Position numbers and translations under genes: made by a program
In this document: positions 26,499 through 48,763 of the stretch, piece by piece
Layout of the letters: the number at the start of each line of letters is the position of its first letter
Position numbering within the stretch: position 1 is the stretch's first letter
Assembly (NCBI GenBank): GCA_963795855.1
Contig: CAWCIZ010000003.1
Location: 512,001 to 576,000, forward strand
Length of the DNA: 64,000 nt
Direction of reading: 5' to 3'
Source: Vulcanimicrobiota bacterium
Lineage (GTDB): Bacteria > Vulcanimicrobiota > Vulcanimicrobiia > Vulcanimicrobiales > Vulcanimicrobiaceae
Notes under the pieces: generated by a model
What the model saw: the letters and a program-made list of their open reading frames with translations, nothing else
The model's database searches: none
Told to the model about the DNA's origin: nothing

Positions 26499-27441
26499 CA
26501 GCAAGAAGAAAAGCAAAAGTAGCCGTCGTGATGGGCGGCACGAGCGCGGAACGCGAGATTTCGATTCAAACCGGAACCGGTGTCGTGCGCGCGGTTCAGG
26601 AATTGGGATACGACGCGCAGTCGCTCGATTACGACACGCGGTTCATCGATGCGATTCGCGACCTCAGCCCCGACGCCGTTTTCATCGCGCTGCACGGCCC
26701 AGGCGGCGAAGACGGGCAAATTCAGGCCATTCTTGACTACTTGGCGATTCCGTACACCGGAAGCGGTATCGAAGCGTGCGCGCTCGCGATGGACAAGCAC
26801 CTCACGAAAAGCTTTGCGCCGCCGAAGGCTTGCCGACCGCCGCGTGGGACTTATTCGATCTCTCGGGAGGTACGCTGCCGCTGCTTCCGGGATCGCTCGA
26901 CCTGCCGCTGGTCATCAAACCGCGGTTCGAGGGCAGCAGCGCCGGCGTGACGATCGTCCGCACGCACGAGCAGTGGACGCAAGCGATGATCGACGCCGCG
27001 GAAGAGTACACGGAGATTCTCGCCGAGGAGTTCGTGCCGGGACGCGAGTTCACGTGCGGCGTGCTCGGGGAAGAAGCGCTGCCGATCGTCGAAATCGTGC
27101 CGAACCGCGACGAATTTTACACCTACGAAGCCAAATACGGCGCCGGCGGAAGCACGCACATCGTGCCCGCGCGAATCGACGACGATTTGGCGGCGCGCCT
27201 GCAAATGCTGGCGCTCTCGGTGCACCGGCTCGTGGGTCTGCGCGACTATTCGCGCACCGATTTTATCGTAAGCAAAGAAGGCCGCCCGTACATTTTGGAG
27301 ATCAACACACTGCCGGGCCTAACGCCCACGAGCATCCTGCCCGACGCGTGCGCTGCGGTCGGCATTTCGTATCAGGCGCTTGTGGACCGCCTTCTCGGTT
27401 ACGCCCTGGCCAGAGCGGGCGAACGGGTTCTCGCCCGGTAG
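26495..27441 (+). CDS. ddl: D-Ala-D-Ala ligase, frameshift in an A-run near 26808
   Basis: [22 protein letters not shown], then the next frame gives EGSS, EAKY, EINTLPG. Confidence 0.9.
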
Positions 27442-32774: not shown

Positions 32775-33916
32775 TTACTCCGTTAACGGTTCGTAGACGC
32801 GCCGCAGTTCCCCGGGTAAGCGCGTCACGATCTCGTAGTTAATCGTTTCCGCCCATTCGGCCCAATCGTCCGCACTCACCGCTTCCGCACCTTGCCTGCC
32901 GATGAGCGTAACCGCGTCTCCGGGTTTGGCGTCGAGCGCGTTTTCGAGGTCGATCATCGTCATGTTCATGCAGACCCGGCCGACGATCGGGCAGCGGCGT
33001 CCGCCGACCAGAAACGCGGCGCGGTTCGAGAGCAGGCGCGGAATACCGTCGGCATAGCCGAGCGGTACGACGCCGATGCGCGTGCGCTTCGGGCGCATGG
33101 TAACTGCCGCCGTATCCGACCGGCGTGCCCGCCTCGACGGCACGCACTGCGGCGAGCGAGCTCTGCAGCGAAAGCGCGGGCTGCAAGTCGAATCGCGCGC
33201 CGTTCATTGCGATCCGGGTCTGCGGCGATGGCCATAAGCCGTACAGCGCAATCCCGATGCGCACCATGTCCAGGCGGGTTTGCGGCCACAGCATCGTCGC
33301 GGCCGACGCGGCGATGTGTTTGAGCGGGCGCGCGTTCTTTTGCGCGAGCGTTTCTTCAACGGAGTGCAGCGCGCGGTTGAATGCGTCGAGCTTGTCCGAG
33401 CGTGAACGGCGAATCGAGTTCTTCCGCTGCGGCCAAGTGCGAGAAGACGCCGGTGAGTGCGAGGTCCGGCAAACGCGCGTAATCTGAAACGGCATCCGCC
33501 GCTTCCGCGGGGTCGAGACCGAGGCGCGTGGTGCCGGTGTTGATCTTCACGTGCACCGGAACCGGAGCGCCGCGCCGCCGGCCCGACTCGGCAACCGCGC
33601 GCAGGTACGACCCGGTGTTCCACAACGCCAGTTCGACGTTGCGCGCGCATACTTCGTCCAGCTGCGCACTTTCGATCGGTCCCATGACGAAGATCGGACG
33701 CGTCACGCCGGCATCGCGCAATACCGCTGCTTCTTGGAGGGAGTACACGCACAAGCGCTCCGCATATGGTTCGACGGTTCGCGCAATTTCCACGATGCCG
33801 TGCCCGTAAGCGTTCGCTTTCACCACGAAGGCGGTTTTTGCGGGAGCCGCCAAATCGCGCAGCGCTCGCGCGTTGTGCGCGATCGCGGCTAAGGAAACGC
33901 AGATGCGCCCGATCAT
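32775..33916 (-). CDS. alr: Alanine racemase, two frameshifts (about 33400 and 33095)
   Basis: VVKANAYGHG, SHLA, MVRIGIALYG, GYADG, GRVCMN, INYEI spread over three frames. Confidence 0.88.
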
Positions 33917-34620: not shown

Positions 34621-35547
34621 GTGCCCGGTCAGCAATTCGCGACCATCCTCGCGCGAACCGATCCGTTCGACGTCGCCCAGGGGGTGGAACGCCACATTCG
34701 CGCGTTGTCCGGCGAGCAGGTACGTCTGTTGATCGAGAACGCTCGGCCGCGCCTGAACGATTTTTACGAGGCGGAATTCGTTCCGCTGTTGGACGAGCGT
34801 AGCGATGCGCGTTTGAAAAGCGGCTTCGCGCAATCCCTCAAGAGTAATTTGCGCGCAATTCCGCTTTTCGGCCCGGCGTTTTGCCAGGGCGTTATCTCCG
34901 GCGTGCCGGCCGATCGCGCCATCGGCCTGGGTGAAGAGGAGCACCGCCTGCGGCCTGTGCGCCCCGTCGCGATCGCCGTTGTCGCCCTGGCGCTCGTCAT
35001 CGCGGGCGCAGCCGGGGAGCGGGTACTCAGCACAGCCAGATCCAACGCCCAGACGCCGGTCATCACCACGACGCCCGCGCCCTTGCAGTTGGAGACGCCG
35101 CGTCCGGTAGCTATCGCGACGGCCGCCGAAGAAACGCGTGCTCAGGCGACGTTGCCGCCGCGATCGCGTCTGCAAGCGTTGCAGACCGCCGTTCCGGTTA
35201 CGGCGCCGGCGTTGTTTTCCCCGACTCGACCGGCTGCGCCGGAAGCGCGCCCGCGGACCCCGGCGCCGGGAGCCGGCGTGAAAACGATCGTGGTAGGTCC
35301 TCCGACGAGCGCGCCCTCACCGCAGCCGAGCGACGTGGACGTGAGCGACATGCCGCAGGCATACACCGACGCGACGCCTTTGCCGAAAGAAACGGCGCCG
35401 CCGGCGCAAGCCGCCACGCCGCTAGGCGTCGTCACCCCTACTGCTTCTCCCAGGCGCCGCTCATGGTTGCATCGCACAATTATGCACTTGGACCCGTTCA
35501 AGCCTAATCCGCGCCCATCAACTTCCGCCCACGGACAGCCGCTATGA
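34621..35547 (+). CDS. Single-TM protein with Pro/Thr-rich extracytoplasmic tail
   Basis: 308-aa ORF, one TM helix, ATGA coupling to the next gene. Confidence 0.6.
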   Translation: MPGQQFATILARTDPFDVAQGVERHIRALSGEQVRLLIENARPRLNDFYEAEFVPLLDERSDARLKSGFAQSLKSNLRAIPLFGPAFCQGVISGVPADRAIGLGEEEHRLRPVRPVAIAVVALALVIAGAAGERVLSTARSNAQTPVITTTPAPLQLETPRPVAIATAAEETRAQATLPPRSRLQALQTAVPVTAPALFSPTRPAAPEARPRTPAPGAGVKTIVVGPPTSAPSPQPSDVDVSDMPQAYTDATPLPKETAPPAQAATPLGVVTPTASPRRRSWLHRTIMHLDPFKPNPRPSTSAHGQPL

Positions 35548-36018
35548 AACTTTCGATCGTTGCGCCGCTTGCAGCCGCTGCCGCCCTGTCGCTGGCCGCA
35601 TGCAATTCCGGCAACAACCCCACCCCGACACCCACGCTTGGGCCTACGTGCCCACTGCCCGCCGGGGTTCAGACGCAGCTCGTGTATCCCGCGCCGGGCT
35701 CGACGGTGAGCGCCTCGACCGTGAGCGAAATCGCGATCGGGTCAACGGCCGCGCTCGATTCGAGCCGCTATCAGGTCGTCATCACGGACGCGCTCTTCCC
35801 ATATCCGAACTTCATCGCGCCCGGCGGCGCGCTGGCGGCGGCCTCACCGCCGTTCCCCTCGCCCAGCCAGACGCCGGCCTTCGGCAATCCGCAGTATCAG
35901 ACCACGACGCTCAGCAGCGTCTTTGCGGCAAACCAGGTCGTGACGGTCTACGTGAACGACACCAAATCGGGCGACAACTGCACACCGCTTCGAGCTGGGC
36001 GCGTTCACGACCCAGTAG
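35544..36018 (+). CDS. Lipoprotein; probable frameshift near 35988, true end ...ELGAFTTQ*
   Basis: Lipobox LAAC; the alternate frame ends at TAG 36016-36018, before the IS. Confidence 0.6.
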
Positions 36019-36276
36019 CCGGCGAACAGCCTCCCCGGGGGCGTCCAAAGGGCATTATCCCCTCACGGCACGGGTAACCGAAATCTCGAAAATGCGCTAG
36101 TGTTATCAGATCAGAGCCTTAATCTTTTCGTTCATGTTCGCGGGGCATAAACAAAGCGTGAAGTTTCGGCTTTTACCAAACCGTGACCGTTGACATTACG
36201 CCCTAAAGCCGGATGATTAGATTCCGACGTATAGCATGGATGCCAAGGATGGCCCACTGGTAGTCTGGAGAGCAGC

Positions 36277-36471
36277 ATGGAGAATTGCCTTGTGTGTGGC
36301 AAGCCAGTTCGAGTCGAGTACCCTGGGTTGCCGCGCGCCCGTGCGCTTTGTGATGATGTTTGCAAGCGAATCTGGGCTGCTCAAACCGGCAAAGAATACA
36401 TCAGTATGCAAGAATACGCCAGCAGGGTGAACGCGGCGACGAAACCTATCCACCCTACTAGCGCGTCGTAA
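36277..36471 (+). CDS. Small zinc-finger protein (CxxC...CxxxC, YacG/FCS-like), IS passenger
   Basis: MENCLVCGKPV...LCDDVCKRIW; GGAGAG upstream; convergent with the DUF3892 gene. Confidence 0.55.
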   Translation: MENCLVCGKPVRVEYPGLPRARALCDDVCKRIWAAQTGKEYISMQEYASRVNAATKPIHPTSAS

Positions 36472-36494
36472 GTCTACCTTAGCGGGTTATCGAT

Positions 36495-36764
36495 TTAGTA
36501 AACAGGCAGACTTAGCAGATTGTCAGCAACGGAATCATTCGGTAGTGTCCGTATGTACGGACGCCGGATGGTCCCGCAAACGACGACTACACGAGTCCGG
36601 CGATCGCCGTCCACCGTGTAGAGTTCGTTTCCGCCGTTGATAAACGCGATGATGGCCGATAGAGTCATCGTTAGCGTTACGCCGAAGACGGTTCGACATT
36701 CCACGTCGGTGATTATGGAGTGGGGACCCTCTAGGTACACTCCTATTGCTTCCAGAGATTGCAT
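36495..36764 (-). CDS. DUF3892-like protein, IS passenger (89 aa)
   Basis: AAGGAGGT RBS; C-terminal PYIRTLPNDSVADNLLSLP signature. Confidence 0.7.
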   Translation of the reverse strand: MQSLEAIGVYLEGPHSIITDVECRTVFGVTLTMTLSAIIAFINGGNELYTVDGDRRTRVVVVCGTIRRPYIRTLPNDSVADNLLSLPVY

Positions 36765-37035
36765 TGAGCAAGACCTCCTTGTGACGTGTCGCACCCGGCG
36801 CTTGGGATGCGGGCGGAGTGCCCGCGCCAAGTCACCAGCGTTCCCACCGAGGCAGGAGCGCTGTCGGGGTACCGGCTTCCCCCGATTTGCCGTCCGCTGA
36901 AGCACTCATCACCTGCGGAAATCTCATAGTACCTCTGGACTGGTGCGGTCGGTAGCCCATTCTCCGAAGCCTTAGCTTTCGCTAAACGAAGCGGGCCCTT
37001 TTGCGTCACCGTCCGGTTCGTGATAATGTTGGAGC

Positions 37036-37126
37036 GGAGCCGGGGAATCTTATTTCATGCGCGGTACCAGCGCGCACCCATGGTTTCTAAGGCCAGGTCG
37101 GACACTTGTCACGATTCGGCGGCTCC
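37036..37126 (+). ncRNA. Candidate cloverleaf-like structured RNA A
   Basis: Closing stem GGAGCCG/CGGCTCC with three internal arms; GATAAT upstream; terminator-like hairpin at 37137-37168. Confidence 0.4.
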
Positions 37127-37194
37127 AAAATGAATCGGGCTCATCTTTTAAGATGGGCCTGTTCTTTACGCGGCATTCTCCGTTTCGGTTGCGG

Positions 37195-37626
37195 CTATTG
37201 TGGCGGGCGGAACGTCGCCGATCCACCGATACGTTCGAGGGGCAATTTTTTGACCATGTGGCGTTGGGAGAGGTTGTAGCACGAGACATCAGTCGCTGAA
37301 AGCGGACTGTCAGCCCGCGTTACTGCGTTCATTGCCTGAGCGCGCTTCCATAATTCCTTTACGTGCATCGGGGTGCCGTGCGCTTCGTACAGAATGCGCG
37401 CGATGGCGCTCATTAATGAAGGCCCGCCCTTCGACCGTGGCGGAACGACATTCGGCGGTTCGATGCCTAACGGTAGCGGCTCGCCATTACTTGCATTCAG
37501 CGTGAGCCAGCGTTCGTCGGCGCGTAGCATGTCGAGCAGTACTTCTCTCTGCCTATCAAGGTTGGCGAGCGTTTCTCGAACTTGTGCTAGCCGATCGCGG
37601 ACTGCTTGCTCGGTTAACATGGTCAT
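37195..37626 (-). CDS. Coiled-coil plus winged-HTH (HARE-HTH-like) protein, IS passenger
   Basis: N-terminal heptads; SLMSAIARILYEAHGTPMHVKELW helix pattern. Confidence 0.65.
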   Translation of the reverse strand: MTMLTEQAVRDRLAQVRETLANLDRQREVLLDMLRADERWLTLNASNGEPLPLGIEPPNVVPPRSKGGPSLMSAIARILYEAHGTPMHVKELWKRAQAMNAVTRADSPLSATDVSCYNLSQRHMVKKLPLERIGGSATFRPPQ

Positions 37627-37652
37627 TTCGGTTCCCTTTTGCTATAATGGCA

Positions 37653-37770
37653 ATGGCGACGCCGGGGCCTCGATCCCCGGAGTTACGGGATTTCAGTCCC
37701 GCTTCTGTCCGAACCGCCGCCATCGGGGGCCCTGGGTCTGTCACCAAACTTCCCCAGGCCCCCTTACTTT
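37653..37770 (+). ncRNA. Candidate structured antisense RNA B
   Basis: TGcTATAAT at 37640-37648; ATGGCG/CGCCAT encloses two hairpins; followed by a GC hairpin and a T-rich tail. Confidence 0.45.
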
Positions 37771-37853
37771 ATCATAACGAGTCTGCTCGCATCATAGGGG
37801 GTAGGCCCTATGTAGGACCTAATAGCTCCATAAAGTTTAGGTAAAAGAGGCGT

Positions 37854-38021
37854 ATGGACAAAACTAAGGGCGTGGCACCATCCGGCGAACGCCCATATGA
37901 ACGGGTTGACTTTCTACGCGACTTGTCTAAGGCGTCTAAGAAACTAGCTTCCGGGGATGATGCTTCGCTGGAAAGTGACGCGCAAGAAACTCCTGGGAAA
38001 TCTGACCGCAAAGAATCGTGA
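37854..38021 (+). CDS. Small ORF antisense to the transposase 3' end (55 aa)
   Basis: AAGAGG RBS; MDKTKG...YERVDFLRDLSKASKK... Confidence 0.4.
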   Translation: MDKTKGVAPSGERPYERVDFLRDLSKASKKLASGDDASLESDAQETPGKSDRKES

Positions 38022-38943
38022 ACATCGGCTTGCCATCCTCGCGATGGTTGTAGCGGAAGCAATACTCGTCTAAGTAACCCTGAATGTGCTTGCGCGAGAT
38101 ATGCTTGTACACGCCGCGCACACTGCCACGGAAATGCGACCAGAAGCCCTCGATCGTGTTCGTCGAAACGCCGTCCGCATCGACGTAAACGCCGTCACTG
38201 TGCTTCACTAGTCTGTGAACGTAACCCCAATGCTTGAGGGGAACGTATTGCGGGGCTTCGTCTGTATGAATTTCACTACCGGGCTTGACTCGCTGCTTGA
38301 TGGGCTGCGTCAACTCGAAGAATCCGCGCCGTTCTACGGGATAAGCCGCAATACGGCCACCACGCTCGACTAAACCCGCGATTACGATCTTGCCGGTTTC
38401 GGGCCCAACAACTTGCGGAAAACGCGCACGAGCCCGACGGTTCATGCGATTAACCTTCGGCCCGAAATACGTTTCATCGGCTTCTACTATCTTGTCGCCG
38501 CCGAGATCGTGAACGTCCTCTAGTAGCATCTTGCGAATGAGGTTGAACATGCGCCACGCAGTTTTATACGTAACGCCGGTTTCGCGCATGAGCTGCATGG
38601 CGGAAATGCCACAACGGGTCGCGCTCATCAAGTAGATCGCGTGGAACCACGTTTTGAGGCTTGTCTTGGACTTGTGGAAGATCGTGCCGGCCGTCGGATG
38701 CGTATGCGTTCCGCAGTAATCGCAGGTCCAGACCTTGGGGCGATTCTTGAGCTGGTGATGGGGGCGGACCTCGCCGCATTGCAAACAGTGGATATACAGT
38801 GCGTCCGCGTCCTCGGGGGCCCATAGCGGCTGCGGATAGAGAGACTTGACCAACCAGCGCATACACGCGATATCGTCCGGAAACTCGGATTCGAACTGCT
38901 TGAACGTGTACTTGCTGTTCTTGGGTAGGTTTAGGCTCGGCAT
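37936..38943 (-). CDS. IS1595-family DDE transposase
   Basis: Zn ribbon CLQC...CDYC, AGTIFH, YKTAWRM, VEADETY, IHTDE, TNTIEGFWS, YLDEYCFRYN. Confidence 0.95.
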   Translation of the reverse strand: MPSLNLPKNSKYTFKQFESEFPDDIACMRWLVKSLYPQPLWAPEDADALYIHCLQCGEVRPHHQLKNRPKVWTCDYCGTHTHPTAGTIFHKSKTSLKTWFHAIYLMSATRCGISAMQLMRETGVTYKTAWRMFNLIRKMLLEDVHDLGGDKIVEADETYFGPKVNRMNRRARARFPQVVGPETGKIVIAGLVERGGRIAAYPVERRGFFELTQPIKQRVKPGSEIHTDEAPQYVPLKHWGYVHRLVKHSDGVYVDADGVSTNTIEGFWSHFRGSVRGVYKHISRKHIQGYLDEYCFRYNHREDGKPMFTILCGQISQEFLARHFPAKHHPRKLVS

Positions 38944-39014
38944 AGGGCTCGCCTCCACCTACAGCGTATCATGGGTTACACGTGCGGTCAAGGGATAATG
39001 ACCCGTCCAAAGAA

Positions 39015-39078
39015 CTTGCAGTCTCCACCGGAGTCTGCTAAGATTCCATCGCTGGCACTCTATTGCTGAGAGTGCCAA
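39015..39078 (+). promoter_or_regulatory. groESL sigma-70 promoter with tandem CIRCE (HrcA operators)
   Basis: TTGCAG-N17-TAAGAT with extended TG; CTGGCACTC-N9-GAGTGCCAA at 39052-39078; degenerate copy at 39015-39041. Confidence 0.88.
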
Positions 39079-47229: not shown

Positions 47230-48271
47230 CTACGGCACCGTCAGCAGCACTTTGATGGCGCGGCGCTCGTCCATTGCCGCGTAGCCCTCTGCGACGCTGC
47301 TCAGCGGCATCGACGCGTCCAGTACCGGCGACGGATCGATTCGACCGGCAGCGAGGCTCTCGATCAGGCGCGGAAGGTATGCGCGTGCCGGCGCGAGCGC
47401 ACCGCGCAAGCAAAGGTTCTTCAGAAAAATCTCGCGCATCGGCGGCGTTTTCACGTTGTTCGGAACGCCCACGAAGCTGACCGTGCCTCCGGGGCGCGCG
47501 ACGCTGACCGCGAGGTCCAAACTCTCTTGATTCCCGACCGCCTCGACCACGTGCGCCGCGCCGCCCTGCGTCAATTCGACGATAGCGCCCTGCGCGCCGG
47601 CGTCGTGCGAATTGTACGTGTGCGTCGCGCCGAAGCGTTTCGCGATCTCCAAACGCTTGGCATTGTGGCCGACGGCAACGATGCGCTCTGCGCGGATCTC
47701 TTTCGCCGCCGAAAGGACTCCACACAGCCCGACGGCGCCGTCGCCGACGATGACGACGGTCGATTCCGGCGTAGACTTGCGCACTGACGACGCCGTGATG
47801 GCCGGTCGCCATGACGTCGCACAGCGTGACGCTCGCGTCGCGCTTGACTGCTTCGTGCGCGATCGCTTCCGGCATCTTCACCAGCGTTCCGTCCGCATAT
47901 GGAACGAGGACGTACTCGGCTTGACCGCCATTCTCTGCGTCGCCGAAATTCGTCATATGCACGCAAGACGTCTGCAAGCCGGCAAGGCAGAATTCGCACG
48001 TGCCGTCGCTCGACACGAACGGTGCGATGACCGCATCGCCCGGCCGCAAACTGCGCACGCCGGAGCCCGCTTCTTCGACCACGCCGATGAATTCGTGGCC
48101 GGTGCGATCCCCGGGCGTCCATTGCGTGACGCCGCGATAGAACCACAGATCCGAACCGCAGATCGCTGCGCGCGTTACCCGCACGATCGCGTCGCGCGGA
48201 TCGCGCACGCGGGGATCGGGAACGGTTTCCAGGCGAACGTCGCGCGCGCCGTGATACACAGTTGCTTTCAT
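47230..48271 (-). CDS. Zinc-dependent alcohol dehydrogenase, frameshift near 47780
   Basis: ICGSD, GHE, GQAEY, then GDGAVG in the next frame. Confidence 0.85.
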
Positions 48272-48306
48272 AGGCGTTTAGACGATGTACCCCGAACCGG
48301 CGGTGC

Positions 48307-48763
48307 ATGCTGACATTCGTGCTGGCCGCTTTGACCGTACTCAACAACGGTGCGTGCCTCGATTCCGCCAGGTCGGTGCCGCAGGGGCTCTTCGGGACCG
48401 AACCGGGCGCGGCAATCGTGAAAATCGACAAAGTGGTTTCGACCGCCGCTATGACGGACGGAGAGATCATCGGCTATCTGTACACGCGGCAAGACGACAG
48501 AACGTATCTGGGTCAGCGGCAGCAGGAGTATATGTCCGCTGCCGACAGGCTCGCAGATCAACCAAGTGCTTCAGTCCACGCACATGCCGGGCGCCACCAT
48601 CACGACGTTTCCCCCCGTTCGGAAATATGGGGTAAAAACGTATTACACCGAGATTTTCCGGGTGCAGGTGCCGCCCGCCGCGACGGACCCGCTGCACATA
48701 CGCTTGGATGACTGCGTGGCGTGGCCGGCGGGGACGGCCCTACCTAATCCGCTACCGCAATAA
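48307..48763 (+). CDS. Secreted hypothetical protein, probable frameshift near 48560
   Basis: Two overlapping ORFs join into one plausible protein. Confidence 0.45.

Follow-up and report, generated by a model that had tools for sequence, protein, structure and literature searches.

In a 64,000-nucleotide (nt) stretch of a Vulcanimicrobiota bacterium genome (assembly GCA_963795855.1, contig CAWCIZ010000003.1, positions 512,001 to 576,000; hereafter the window), an IS1595-family insertion sequence (IS) at 36050-39003 carries among its cargo an RNA that joins the identity features of tRNA-Ser to a leucine anticodon, UAG. The element has defined ends, the RNA folds into a covarying cloverleaf with serine identity bases, it recurs in IS1595 and IS1-like elements (IS1-like meaning that the best hidden Markov model was IS1, below its cut-off), and an antisense -10 box and a terminator-like hairpin are placed on either side of it. 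We tentatively read the RNA as a mistranslating tRNA toxin held in check by an antisense transcript, a reading to which we give somewhat less than an even chance and which we rank first, ahead of (in order of confidence) an uncharged tRNA mimic acting in cis, a tRNA that serves the element's own decoding, decay, and control of the phage C4 kind.

37035..37126, minus strand: allo-tRNA-like RNA, a cloverleaf with a long variable arm and anticodon UAG, identified from the covariation of its relatives

An initial annotation, made from the sequence alone, had described at least three heavily base-paired non-coding blocks with their own -10 boxes in the element. Structured blocks are indeed present when the relatives are compared, whereas single-sequence folding is only modest (best 120-nt window at a z-score of about -3.1, against -2.6 inside the transposase gene and -3.7 at the element edge), and the reality of the blocks therefore rests on that comparison. 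What the annotation missed is that two of the blocks are tRNA-like and that these RNAs lie on the minus strand, the two adjoining plus-strand boxes pointing antisense to them. BLAST found the allo-tRNA-like RNA in 4 of 400 other genomes of the phylum and pattern searches at 7 metagenome and 5 genome loci; after removal of duplicates there are 10 distinct sequences. No match for it was obtained in plasmids or, using three patterns, in viral contigs. A covariance model run over 150 genomes of the class returned 2 known loci; one further marginal match, inside a coding region, was rejected, and weak BLAST matches at four loci (L065-L068) were rejected as chance, one of them from genome G176, on which nothing here depends.

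Read on the minus strand, the RNA folds in tRNA order into an acceptor, a D arm with a tetraloop, an anticodon arm, a long variable arm and a 4-bp T arm. Across nine aligned sequences 98.5% of 260 cells are paired and 9 of 29 pairs show double changes, a covariation score reached by 0 of 500 shuffles, while slid controls were 33-43% paired. The variable arm has 7 bp with double changes at 4 pairs. The anticodon stem, which in allo-tRNAs is longer and carries a 7-nt loop, is made up of 5 pairs interrupted by a bulge, two of them showing double changes, and has a mismatch beside the loop. The acceptor and D stems are invariant in this alignment and hence have no support from covariation; the D stem comprises 6 pairs, one bulge and a 4-nt loop (5 nt in L064). 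D-loop and T-loop bases change together, with A18/G55 in 6 sequences and G18/U55 in 3, one clade being split. U33 is invariant and position 37 is a purine in 9 of the 10 sequences, and the RNAs are 74-94% identical where the proteins encoded upstream of them are 27-58% identical. A functional fold on the plus strand, compatible in energy, was set aside because the tRNA landmarks and the upstream stop codons fall on the minus strand.

Transfer RNA for serine is marked by G1-C72, G2-C71, A3-U70, G73 and a long variable arm. All of these are invariant among the nine sequences (G73 in 9/9), and the acceptor ends are those of the host's own tRNA-Ser genes. The anticodon is nonetheless that of leucine, UAG in 9/10 distinct sequences and UAA in 1/10. 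This combination recalls the allo-tRNAs of Mukai et al. (PMC5389517), who name the long arm and G73 as serine features and report that allo-tRNAs with leucine anticodons insert serine and kill E. coli. The likeness extends to the GGAG...CUCC-G73 ends, the long D stem with a tetraloop, the long variable arm, the 4-bp T stem, the UAG and UAA anticodons and the many members without an encoded CCA, and some allo-tRNAs lie beside toxin-antitoxin genes and overlap a transposon-related open reading frame (ORF). There are also differences: allo-tRNAs have a 12-bp acceptor branch, in 8/4 or 9/3 form, where our family has 11 pairs and a C-C mismatch, and the 4-5 nt linker, the bulged D-stem U that doubles as a stop codon and the T loop UGCAAGA set the family apart. 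Leucine anticodons are reported there mainly for 9/3 forms, in Clostridia, Proteobacteria and Acidobacteria; the text available, considered without the maps of Figure 4, mentions neither antisense units nor delimited IS carriers, and six family-specific strings had 0 matches in its 731-row sequence table. Since the strict 12-bp acceptor rule is missed by one mismatch, we file the RNA as allo-tRNA-like and not as a member.

The RNA stands among candidate transcription signals, together with a second tRNA-like RNA and a regulator-like gene:

37021..37029, plus strand: antisense extended -10 box, 5 nt beyond the 3' terminus of the allo-tRNA-like RNA
37136..37169, plus strand: terminator-like hairpin and T run closing this antisense unit
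37195..37626, minus strand: coiled-coil and HARE-type winged-helix protein, 143 aa (Pfam below cut-off; AlphaFold model)
37620..37648, plus strand: antisense sigma-70-like promoter that includes an extended -10 at 37640-37648, 5 nt beyond the 3' terminus of the first tRNA-like RNA
37654..37722, minus strand: first tRNA-like RNA, with GAA in a 6-nt anticodon loop and a 6-bp T stem (relaxed ARAGORN)
within 37725..37774, plus strand: terminator-like hairpin (sequence and fold)
37766-37774, minus strand: extended -10 for the transcript of the tRNA-like RNA and HARE-HTH gene (consensus match)

These boxes and terminators are consensus matches, not transcripts, and their placement is orderly. The motif TGnTAnnnT occurs five times in the element, each time at the boundary of a unit: before the zinc-finger gene, the transposase gene and the first tRNA-like RNA, and antisense just past each tRNA-like RNA. 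Its density per kb per strand is 0.14 in the genome and 0.57 in elements. Each antisense stretch in the window closes with a hairpin and a T run. Among the relatives, an antisense TGnTAnnnT lies within 260 nt of the RNA at 7 of the 10 allo-tRNA-like loci, and an antisense box stands just before the gene at 6/6 HARE-HTH loci compared with 3.5% of 60-nt cargo windows. An RNA toxin and its antisense antitoxin encoded on opposite strands of one locus are also found in the type VIII system SdsR/RyeA, where SdsR represses mRNAs (PMC8610362), whereas the toxin proposed here would be a translation adaptor. Of the opposite-strand arrangement that defines that type, the window shows promoter-like and terminator-like signals only.

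The first tRNA-like RNA has a cloverleaf as its minimum-free-energy structure (z -2.0 on the minus strand, -0.5 on the plus strand) and passes ARAGORN at 90% of its threshold. The gene that follows encodes what the annotation had called a coiled-coil/winged helix-turn-helix (wHTH) protein, and this description fits: the HARE-HTH match has an E-value of 7.6e-4, below cut-off, and the AlphaFold model shows a 42-residue helix and a winged helix (pLDDT, the predicted local distance difference test, 86.8). Its protein family numbers 120 representatives, and a fold search gave weak winged-helix matches, none at E 0.001. A GAA-loop tRNA-like leader is found at 4 of 6 HARE-HTH loci (ARAGORN at 70%). 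In genome G173 a HARE-HTH gene with such a leader is followed by a canonical tRNA with a serine body and UAG anticodon (Rfam, 48.9 bits), which has an antisense -10 at 7 nt; this is the same three-part layout as in the window, built from a different tRNA.

If the RNA is a toxin, a minus-strand transcript from 37766 would cover, in turn, the GAA tRNA-like leader, the gene for the wHTH protein (a likely transcriptional regulator) and the UAG RNA. Host RNase P, the CCA-adding enzyme and seryl-tRNA synthetase would mature and charge the UAG RNA, which would then place serine at CUA and CUG codons unless paired with an antisense RNA of about 130 nt starting from 37021. On phage infection or transcription arrest the short-lived antisense RNA would be lost, the stable tRNA freed, and the cell would stall.

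A number of points weigh against this reading. The acceptor branch, of 7 + 4 pairs, has C-C opposed at its eighth position without variation (9/9 sequences) and so departs from the 12-bp standard, and the RNA also has a mismatch at the end of the anticodon stem, a bulge in the D stem and a non-canonical T loop. Its variable stem opens with a G-U pair in 9/9, and a G-U at that position lowered the serine activity of engineered allo-tRNAs (PMC7590224). Mukai et al. (PMC5389517) describe a transposon-linked group of allo-tRNAs with anticodon UAU and destabilised stems that was inactive in translation. Wobble-pair evidence for the strand is mixed, with the window copy at z -3.2 on the plus strand versus -2.4 on the minus strand, and the ten RNA sequences are kin, not independent events. 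Standard tools also pass the locus over: ARAGORN at default settings found 0 tRNA genes in the window, and Rfam gave 0 matches at gathering thresholds and 2 chance matches at E 5. A perfect antisense -10 box is missing at 3/10 allo-tRNA-like loci, the T run after the hairpin is missing at about 5/11 loci, and none of six other IS-borne or IS-linked tRNAs checked has a perfect antisense box. Genes of the element itself use CTA heavily, in part at invariant leucine sites, and would be damaged by serine insertion. Finally, PADLOC returned no match for the four cargo proteins.

Departures from canonical tRNA of this number would be expected if the RNAs are never charged and act in cis as tRNA mimics, a cut by RNase P or a similar enzyme setting the level of the neighbouring regulator mRNA, which we regard as rather unlikely. 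The gene context in the relatives speaks for such a role. Outside the window the carriers are IS1-like elements, the IS1595 element L075 and, once, a site behind a primase-like region (L070). Upstream there is usually a DUF5343-like gene (weak Pfam matches; our literature search found no paper on DUF5343), which ends at a UGA formed by the D-stem bulge. Translation of 11 loci, including 2 duplicates, showed that the upstream frame ends inside the D arm at all 9 distinct loci outside the window, and 8 of these genes are DUF5343-like with two different C-terminal domains; with the frame ending there, cleavage at the RNA's 5' end would leave an mRNA without a stop codon. That GAA tRNA-like leaders very different in sequence precede HARE-HTH genes, and that the UAU group of Mukai et al. 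is inactive in translation, fit the same view. On the other hand, the overlap of gene and D arm is absent in the window and in L070, the anticodon loop and the serine identity bases are kept beyond what a cleavage signal would need, and tRNAs with canonical bodies and mismatched anticodons occupy the same slot in G173 and in a second genome, G005.

Downstream of the RNA, the relatives have a strong Shine-Dalgarno (SD) sequence, then a short ORF encoding an E(P/S)K motif, then a terminator; the ORF has an in-frame start in 14 of 15 distinct copies across five spacer lengths. In the window the DUF5343-like and SD-ORF neighbours are replaced by HARE-HTH and by a leader with a DUF3892 gene. The SD module (strong SD, short basic E(P/S)K ORF, hairpin and terminator) is recurrent cargo, absent from the window and, by one pattern, from viral contigs; it was seen at L004 1370-1490, L005 1618-1740, L028, L029, L049, L093, L094, L130 and other loci, with an antisense extended -10 in 6/15 copies and with many copies lacking a stop before the terminator. 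At L049 5700-5720 this D-arm sequence and stop again form the end of a DUF5343-like gene, but the remainder of the tRNA is absent and the SD module follows directly, which may mean that the RNA was lost or gained at a set position.

A tRNA-like shape followed by an SD-led small ORF also brings to mind the C4 RNA of phage P1 and the CI RNA of phage P4, tRNA-like antisense RNAs in which a loop is complementary to a conserved target in the same operon. We give very little credence to a trans-acting antisense regulator of this kind. The window has one 7-nt complement 59-65 nt downstream of the RNA, but the best complements at 11 loci span 4-7 nt and have no position in common, so that a conserved target was not found, and there is no match to C4 in Rfam. 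C4-like pairing was accordingly rejected on sequence tests, as were repeats of the type III toxin-antitoxin kind (below).

The combination of one amino acid's identity with another's anticodon extends beyond this RNA family. Rfam tRNAs are present in 5 of 38 other IS1595 elements, and three of them have leucine-type bodies with proline or alanine anticodons when compared with host tRNAs, the nearest body being assigned by alignment score. The closest IS1595 relative, L075 (transposase 67.6% identical, ends nearly identical), has an additional Ala-like body with G3-U70 and a threonine anticodon, found by relaxed ARAGORN only, and L073 has a short-arm body with a serine anticodon. Relaxed ARAGORN hits by themselves were not trusted, as they numbered 12 in the elements versus 2-7 in five shuffles. 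Mismatched tRNAs in or beside ISs were noted at L157 2187-2272, L171 1535-1623, L177 1541-1624, L186 2620-2713, L092 521-649 (with a 58-nt variable region) and L073 2919-2992, and are a recurring theme of these mobile elements. Natural bacterial tRNAs in which identity and anticodon disagree are also known from tRNA-ProX, which differs in its proline identity, its canonical shape and its place beside proSx; in the text available (PMC10404621) transposons, prophages and mobile elements have 0 occurrences.

Codon usage raises the possibility, improbable in our view, that the tRNA serves the element itself, altering how the rare CUA codon is read in its own genes by extra supply or by dual Leu/Ser decoding and so making the output of transposase and cargo dependent on the tRNA. 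CTA is among the rarest host codons (2.5 per 1000) and common in the element, and the transposases of the window and L075, the two RNA-bearing IS1595 elements, rank 1 and 2 of 43 for the CTA share of leucine codons; likewise, the two elements with UGG tRNAs rank 1 and 2 of 43 for CCA. In the window 7/13 scorable CTA codons stand at sites that are polar in homologues compared with 2/34 other leucine codons (Fisher p 0.0007, post hoc), and in host genes 0/17 CTA do. The replicate failed, with CTA at polar sites in 1/17 cases for five IS1-like transposases and 0/6 for eight RNA-linked DUF5343-like genes, in which CTA marks conserved leucine. Further objections are that the two IS1595 elements, being sisters, have 6 CTA sites in common, that L134 has the lowest GC content at third codon positions of the 43, that the tRNAs with TGC, GTT and AGT show no anticodon-codon match, and that serine is never the consensus residue. 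At most, the CTA pattern may hint at ambiguous reading in one clade. Wholesale reassignment of CUA to serine was rejected given the CTA at invariant leucine sites and the negative IS1-like/DUF5343 replicate; all five RNA-linked IS1-like transposases (L069, L064, L077, L072, L079) keep CTA at the same two invariant leucine sites. The broader proposal, in which IS1595 and IS1-like elements spread identity-swapped tRNAs as antisense-controlled, code-breaking toxins for defence or addiction and one IS1595 clade writes its own proteins with CUA as leucine or serine, lies on the unlikely side in our estimation.

It could also be that the RNAs of the window copy are decayed hitch-hikers and that only the protein passengers matter, or nothing does, to which we give a slim chance. 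The window copy has 3/4 T-stem pairs and, since its T loop is 2 nt short, may be weakened or dead; the first tRNA-like RNA has a 6-nt anticodon loop and only short chance BLAST matches in 384 genomes of the class, and cargo turns over fast. Against decay, no damage is seen in the acceptor, D arm, anticodon or variable arm, the candidate promoters and terminators coincide exactly with the boundaries, and the argument concerns the window copy, not the RNA family. The loss of one base in an A run may moreover be an assembly error, as may the 6-nt loop, because about 8 frame breaks occur in the 39 kb of genes compared with genome G260. Frame breaks were seen at 32775-33916, 35544-36018, 26603-27438 and 47236-48760 in genes that are whole in G260, including alanine racemase and the lipoprotein gene adjoining the element, and these are likely assembly indels judging from that comparison.

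The carrier of the RNA is a complete, single-copy IS1595 transporter element, with the following features at and inside its ends:

36042..36049: 8-bp target-site duplication, left copy (congeners show a single related site)
36050..36079: terminal inverted repeat, cargo end (inverted-repeat search)
37854..38021, plus strand: basic ORF, 55 aa, antisense to the end of the transposase gene
37936..38943, minus strand: IS1595-family DDE transposase, 335 aa (NF033547, PF12762), with an extended -10 at 38963-38971
38974..39003: terminal inverted repeat, transposase end (inverted-repeat search)
39004..39011: 8-bp target-site duplication, right copy, 4 nt ahead of the -35 of the groES-groEL promoter

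The annotation's description of the ends and the transposase was accurate. The inverted repeats are 30 nt long and 83% complementary and rank first by length among those of the region, and the same 8-mer, CGTCCAAA, lies at both outer sides (perfect 8/8). The transposase frame is open, with 181.9 bits to NF033547 (cut-off 75) and 113 bits to PF12762, CxxC motifs (residues 53 and 74), acidic motifs (154, 227 and 262) and a weak helix-turn-helix match over residues 103-140. Members of the IS1595 family duplicate 8 bp of target, and their transposases have a zinc finger and a helix-turn-helix N-terminal to the catalytic domain. The element shows each of these, the helix-turn-helix match being weak, as well as terminal repeats and passengers (DUF3892, zinc finger and HARE-HTH within its ends). 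It is present once in the genome, its transposase is the sole PF12762 match genome-wide (assembly 86% complete), and the region upstream of groES is free of the element in 4 of 5 congeners searched, 3 of which have the same lipoprotein gene directly ahead of it. A recent single insertion, as previously suggested, is thus supported. The insertion sits 4 nt before the -35 and leaves the groES-groEL promoter intact, together with a CIRCE-like operator; promoter and CIRCE-like inverted repeat span 39016-39078, and the element replaces DNA just upstream of the -35.

Relatives of the transposase were found in 85 of 385 genomes of the class. At 62 loci examined, 56 had a related transposase and 40 could be delimited as elements, for which a target duplication of at least 7/8 was required; these measure 1.9-5.6 kb (median 2.7 kb), and 39/40 have a perfect 8/8 duplication. 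Given this median and the known class of transporter ISs (tIS), which have IS-like ends, a single transposase and passengers and are stated to be restricted to IS1595 and IS66 in the text available (TnCentral preprint 2021.05.26.445724), a 2.95-kb element with passengers is ordinary for the group. That text does not mention tRNA-like RNAs or structured leaders, both of which are passengers here. The 55-aa ORF was missing from the annotation's list of three cargo ORFs, which otherwise stands; it has 73% identity over 41 aa in L075 and a weak match in G129. Many IS1595 elements have an ORF of 50-70 aa, with a helix and rich in Lys/Arg, opposite the 3' end of the transposase gene, possibly a family-wide accessory gene. 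Other IS1595 cargo includes a DUF3800-VII RNA together with its gene (L142 1349-1441, 72.5 bits) and a fluoride-riboswitch-like motif below cut-off (L156 1384-1446).

The remaining cargo lies between the allo-tRNA-like RNA and the left end:

36190-36217, plus strand: second candidate promoter of the zinc-finger ORF (consensus match only)
36258..36266, plus strand: extended -10 (TGnTAnnnT) ahead of the zinc-finger ORF (consensus match only)
36277..36471, plus strand: C4 zinc finger, 64 aa, CxxC-x17-CxxxC, convergent with DUF3892
36495..36764, minus strand: DUF3892 protein, 89 aa, with SD at 36773-36780
36765..36920, minus strand: structured leader RNA of DUF3892 (G005 comparison), with a -10-like hexamer at 36926-36931
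36955..37002, plus strand: terminator-like hairpin, then a T run (sequence and fold)

The DUF3892 assignment holds at 31 bits to PF13031 (cut-off 22.3), the true start being the ATG at 36764, which a strong SD precedes. No Pfam match of the zinc-finger ORF exceeds the cut-off, but this ORF does have a homologue (48-54%) in the G005 element; its Atlas look-alikes are unnamed phage and bacterial proteins (0.93-0.94), and a phage search gave no match. PF13031 occurs in 7 of 130 other genomes of the family, one case (G005) lying inside a distant IS1595 element with about 35% transposase identity and a 7/8 duplication. The order there is an unrelated gene, a long-arm tRNA with a proline anticodon, a homologous leader, DUF3892 (55% identical) and the zinc finger, again convergent; the first gene in this order was considered as a HARE-HTH homologue and rejected, as it is not homologous. 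The leaders are 83% identical over 42 nt and the G005 copy shows compensatory changes relative to that of the window (z -2.0), with double changes at 7/36 pairs in an alignment of 2 sequences only. No plasmid match was found for DUF3892, and its single-sequence structure prediction was useless (pLDDT 35), with no solved relative found. A predicted complex of DUF3892 with the zinc finger scored 0.47 versus 0.00 for the best control, with runs agreeing in at least 89% of contacts and partner pLDDT of at least 71. In calibration the mark was reached by 116/157 solved pairs and 2/215 mismatched pairs, but with a score no higher than 0.60 by only 18/157 solved pairs and by both mismatched ones; the prediction lends the complex weak support.

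Leader, DUF3892 and zinc finger likely form a second, separately controlled conflict module. DUF3892 has been linked to defence operons yet is uncharacterised, and the DUF3892 operons with CapH/CapP-like regulators described in bioRxiv 2022.04.27.489752 share with the element a small DUF3892 protein, a putative defence setting and a nearby HTH gene; the element lacks a metallopeptidase and has instead a structured leader and a convergent zinc finger. We also considered leader and DUF3892 as a type III toxin-antitoxin system. In such systems the toxin gene is preceded by tandem repeats of the RNA and by a terminator. The leader has no repeat family and is a single multi-stem structure running into the SD, and the candidate was rejected. 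The annotation had suggested that the whole cargo may be one self-contained regulatory, toxin-antitoxin or anti-phage module, or random captured DNA if its genes never co-occur elsewhere and are not transcribed. They do co-occur, as leader, DUF3892 and zinc finger in the same order in G005 and as tRNA-like RNA, HARE-HTH and serine-type UAG tRNA in G173. Cargo sets therefore recur, but the cargo is a mosaic in which two or more modules can be exchanged, and not one unit.

A literature search outside subscription journals and ISfinder/TnPedia brought up no account of this RNA family, nor any of allo-tRNAs under antisense control or of IS1595 elements with tRNA cargo. Allo-tRNAs have been engineering tools since 2017; as to their natural role, their discoverers could offer only a guess at a link to transposons and toxin-antitoxin systems. 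Here members of one family sit in elements of 2.5-3 kb that are fully delimited and moved recently, with promoter candidates for either strand, a regulator gene and relatives showing the empty site, and one cloned cassette would be enough to put the question to the test. If our reading is true, mistranslation would be a deployable toxin mechanism, insertion sequences would be one way for codon ambiguity to get into genomes, and a whole class of mobile genes would be missed or mislabelled by standard tRNA finders.

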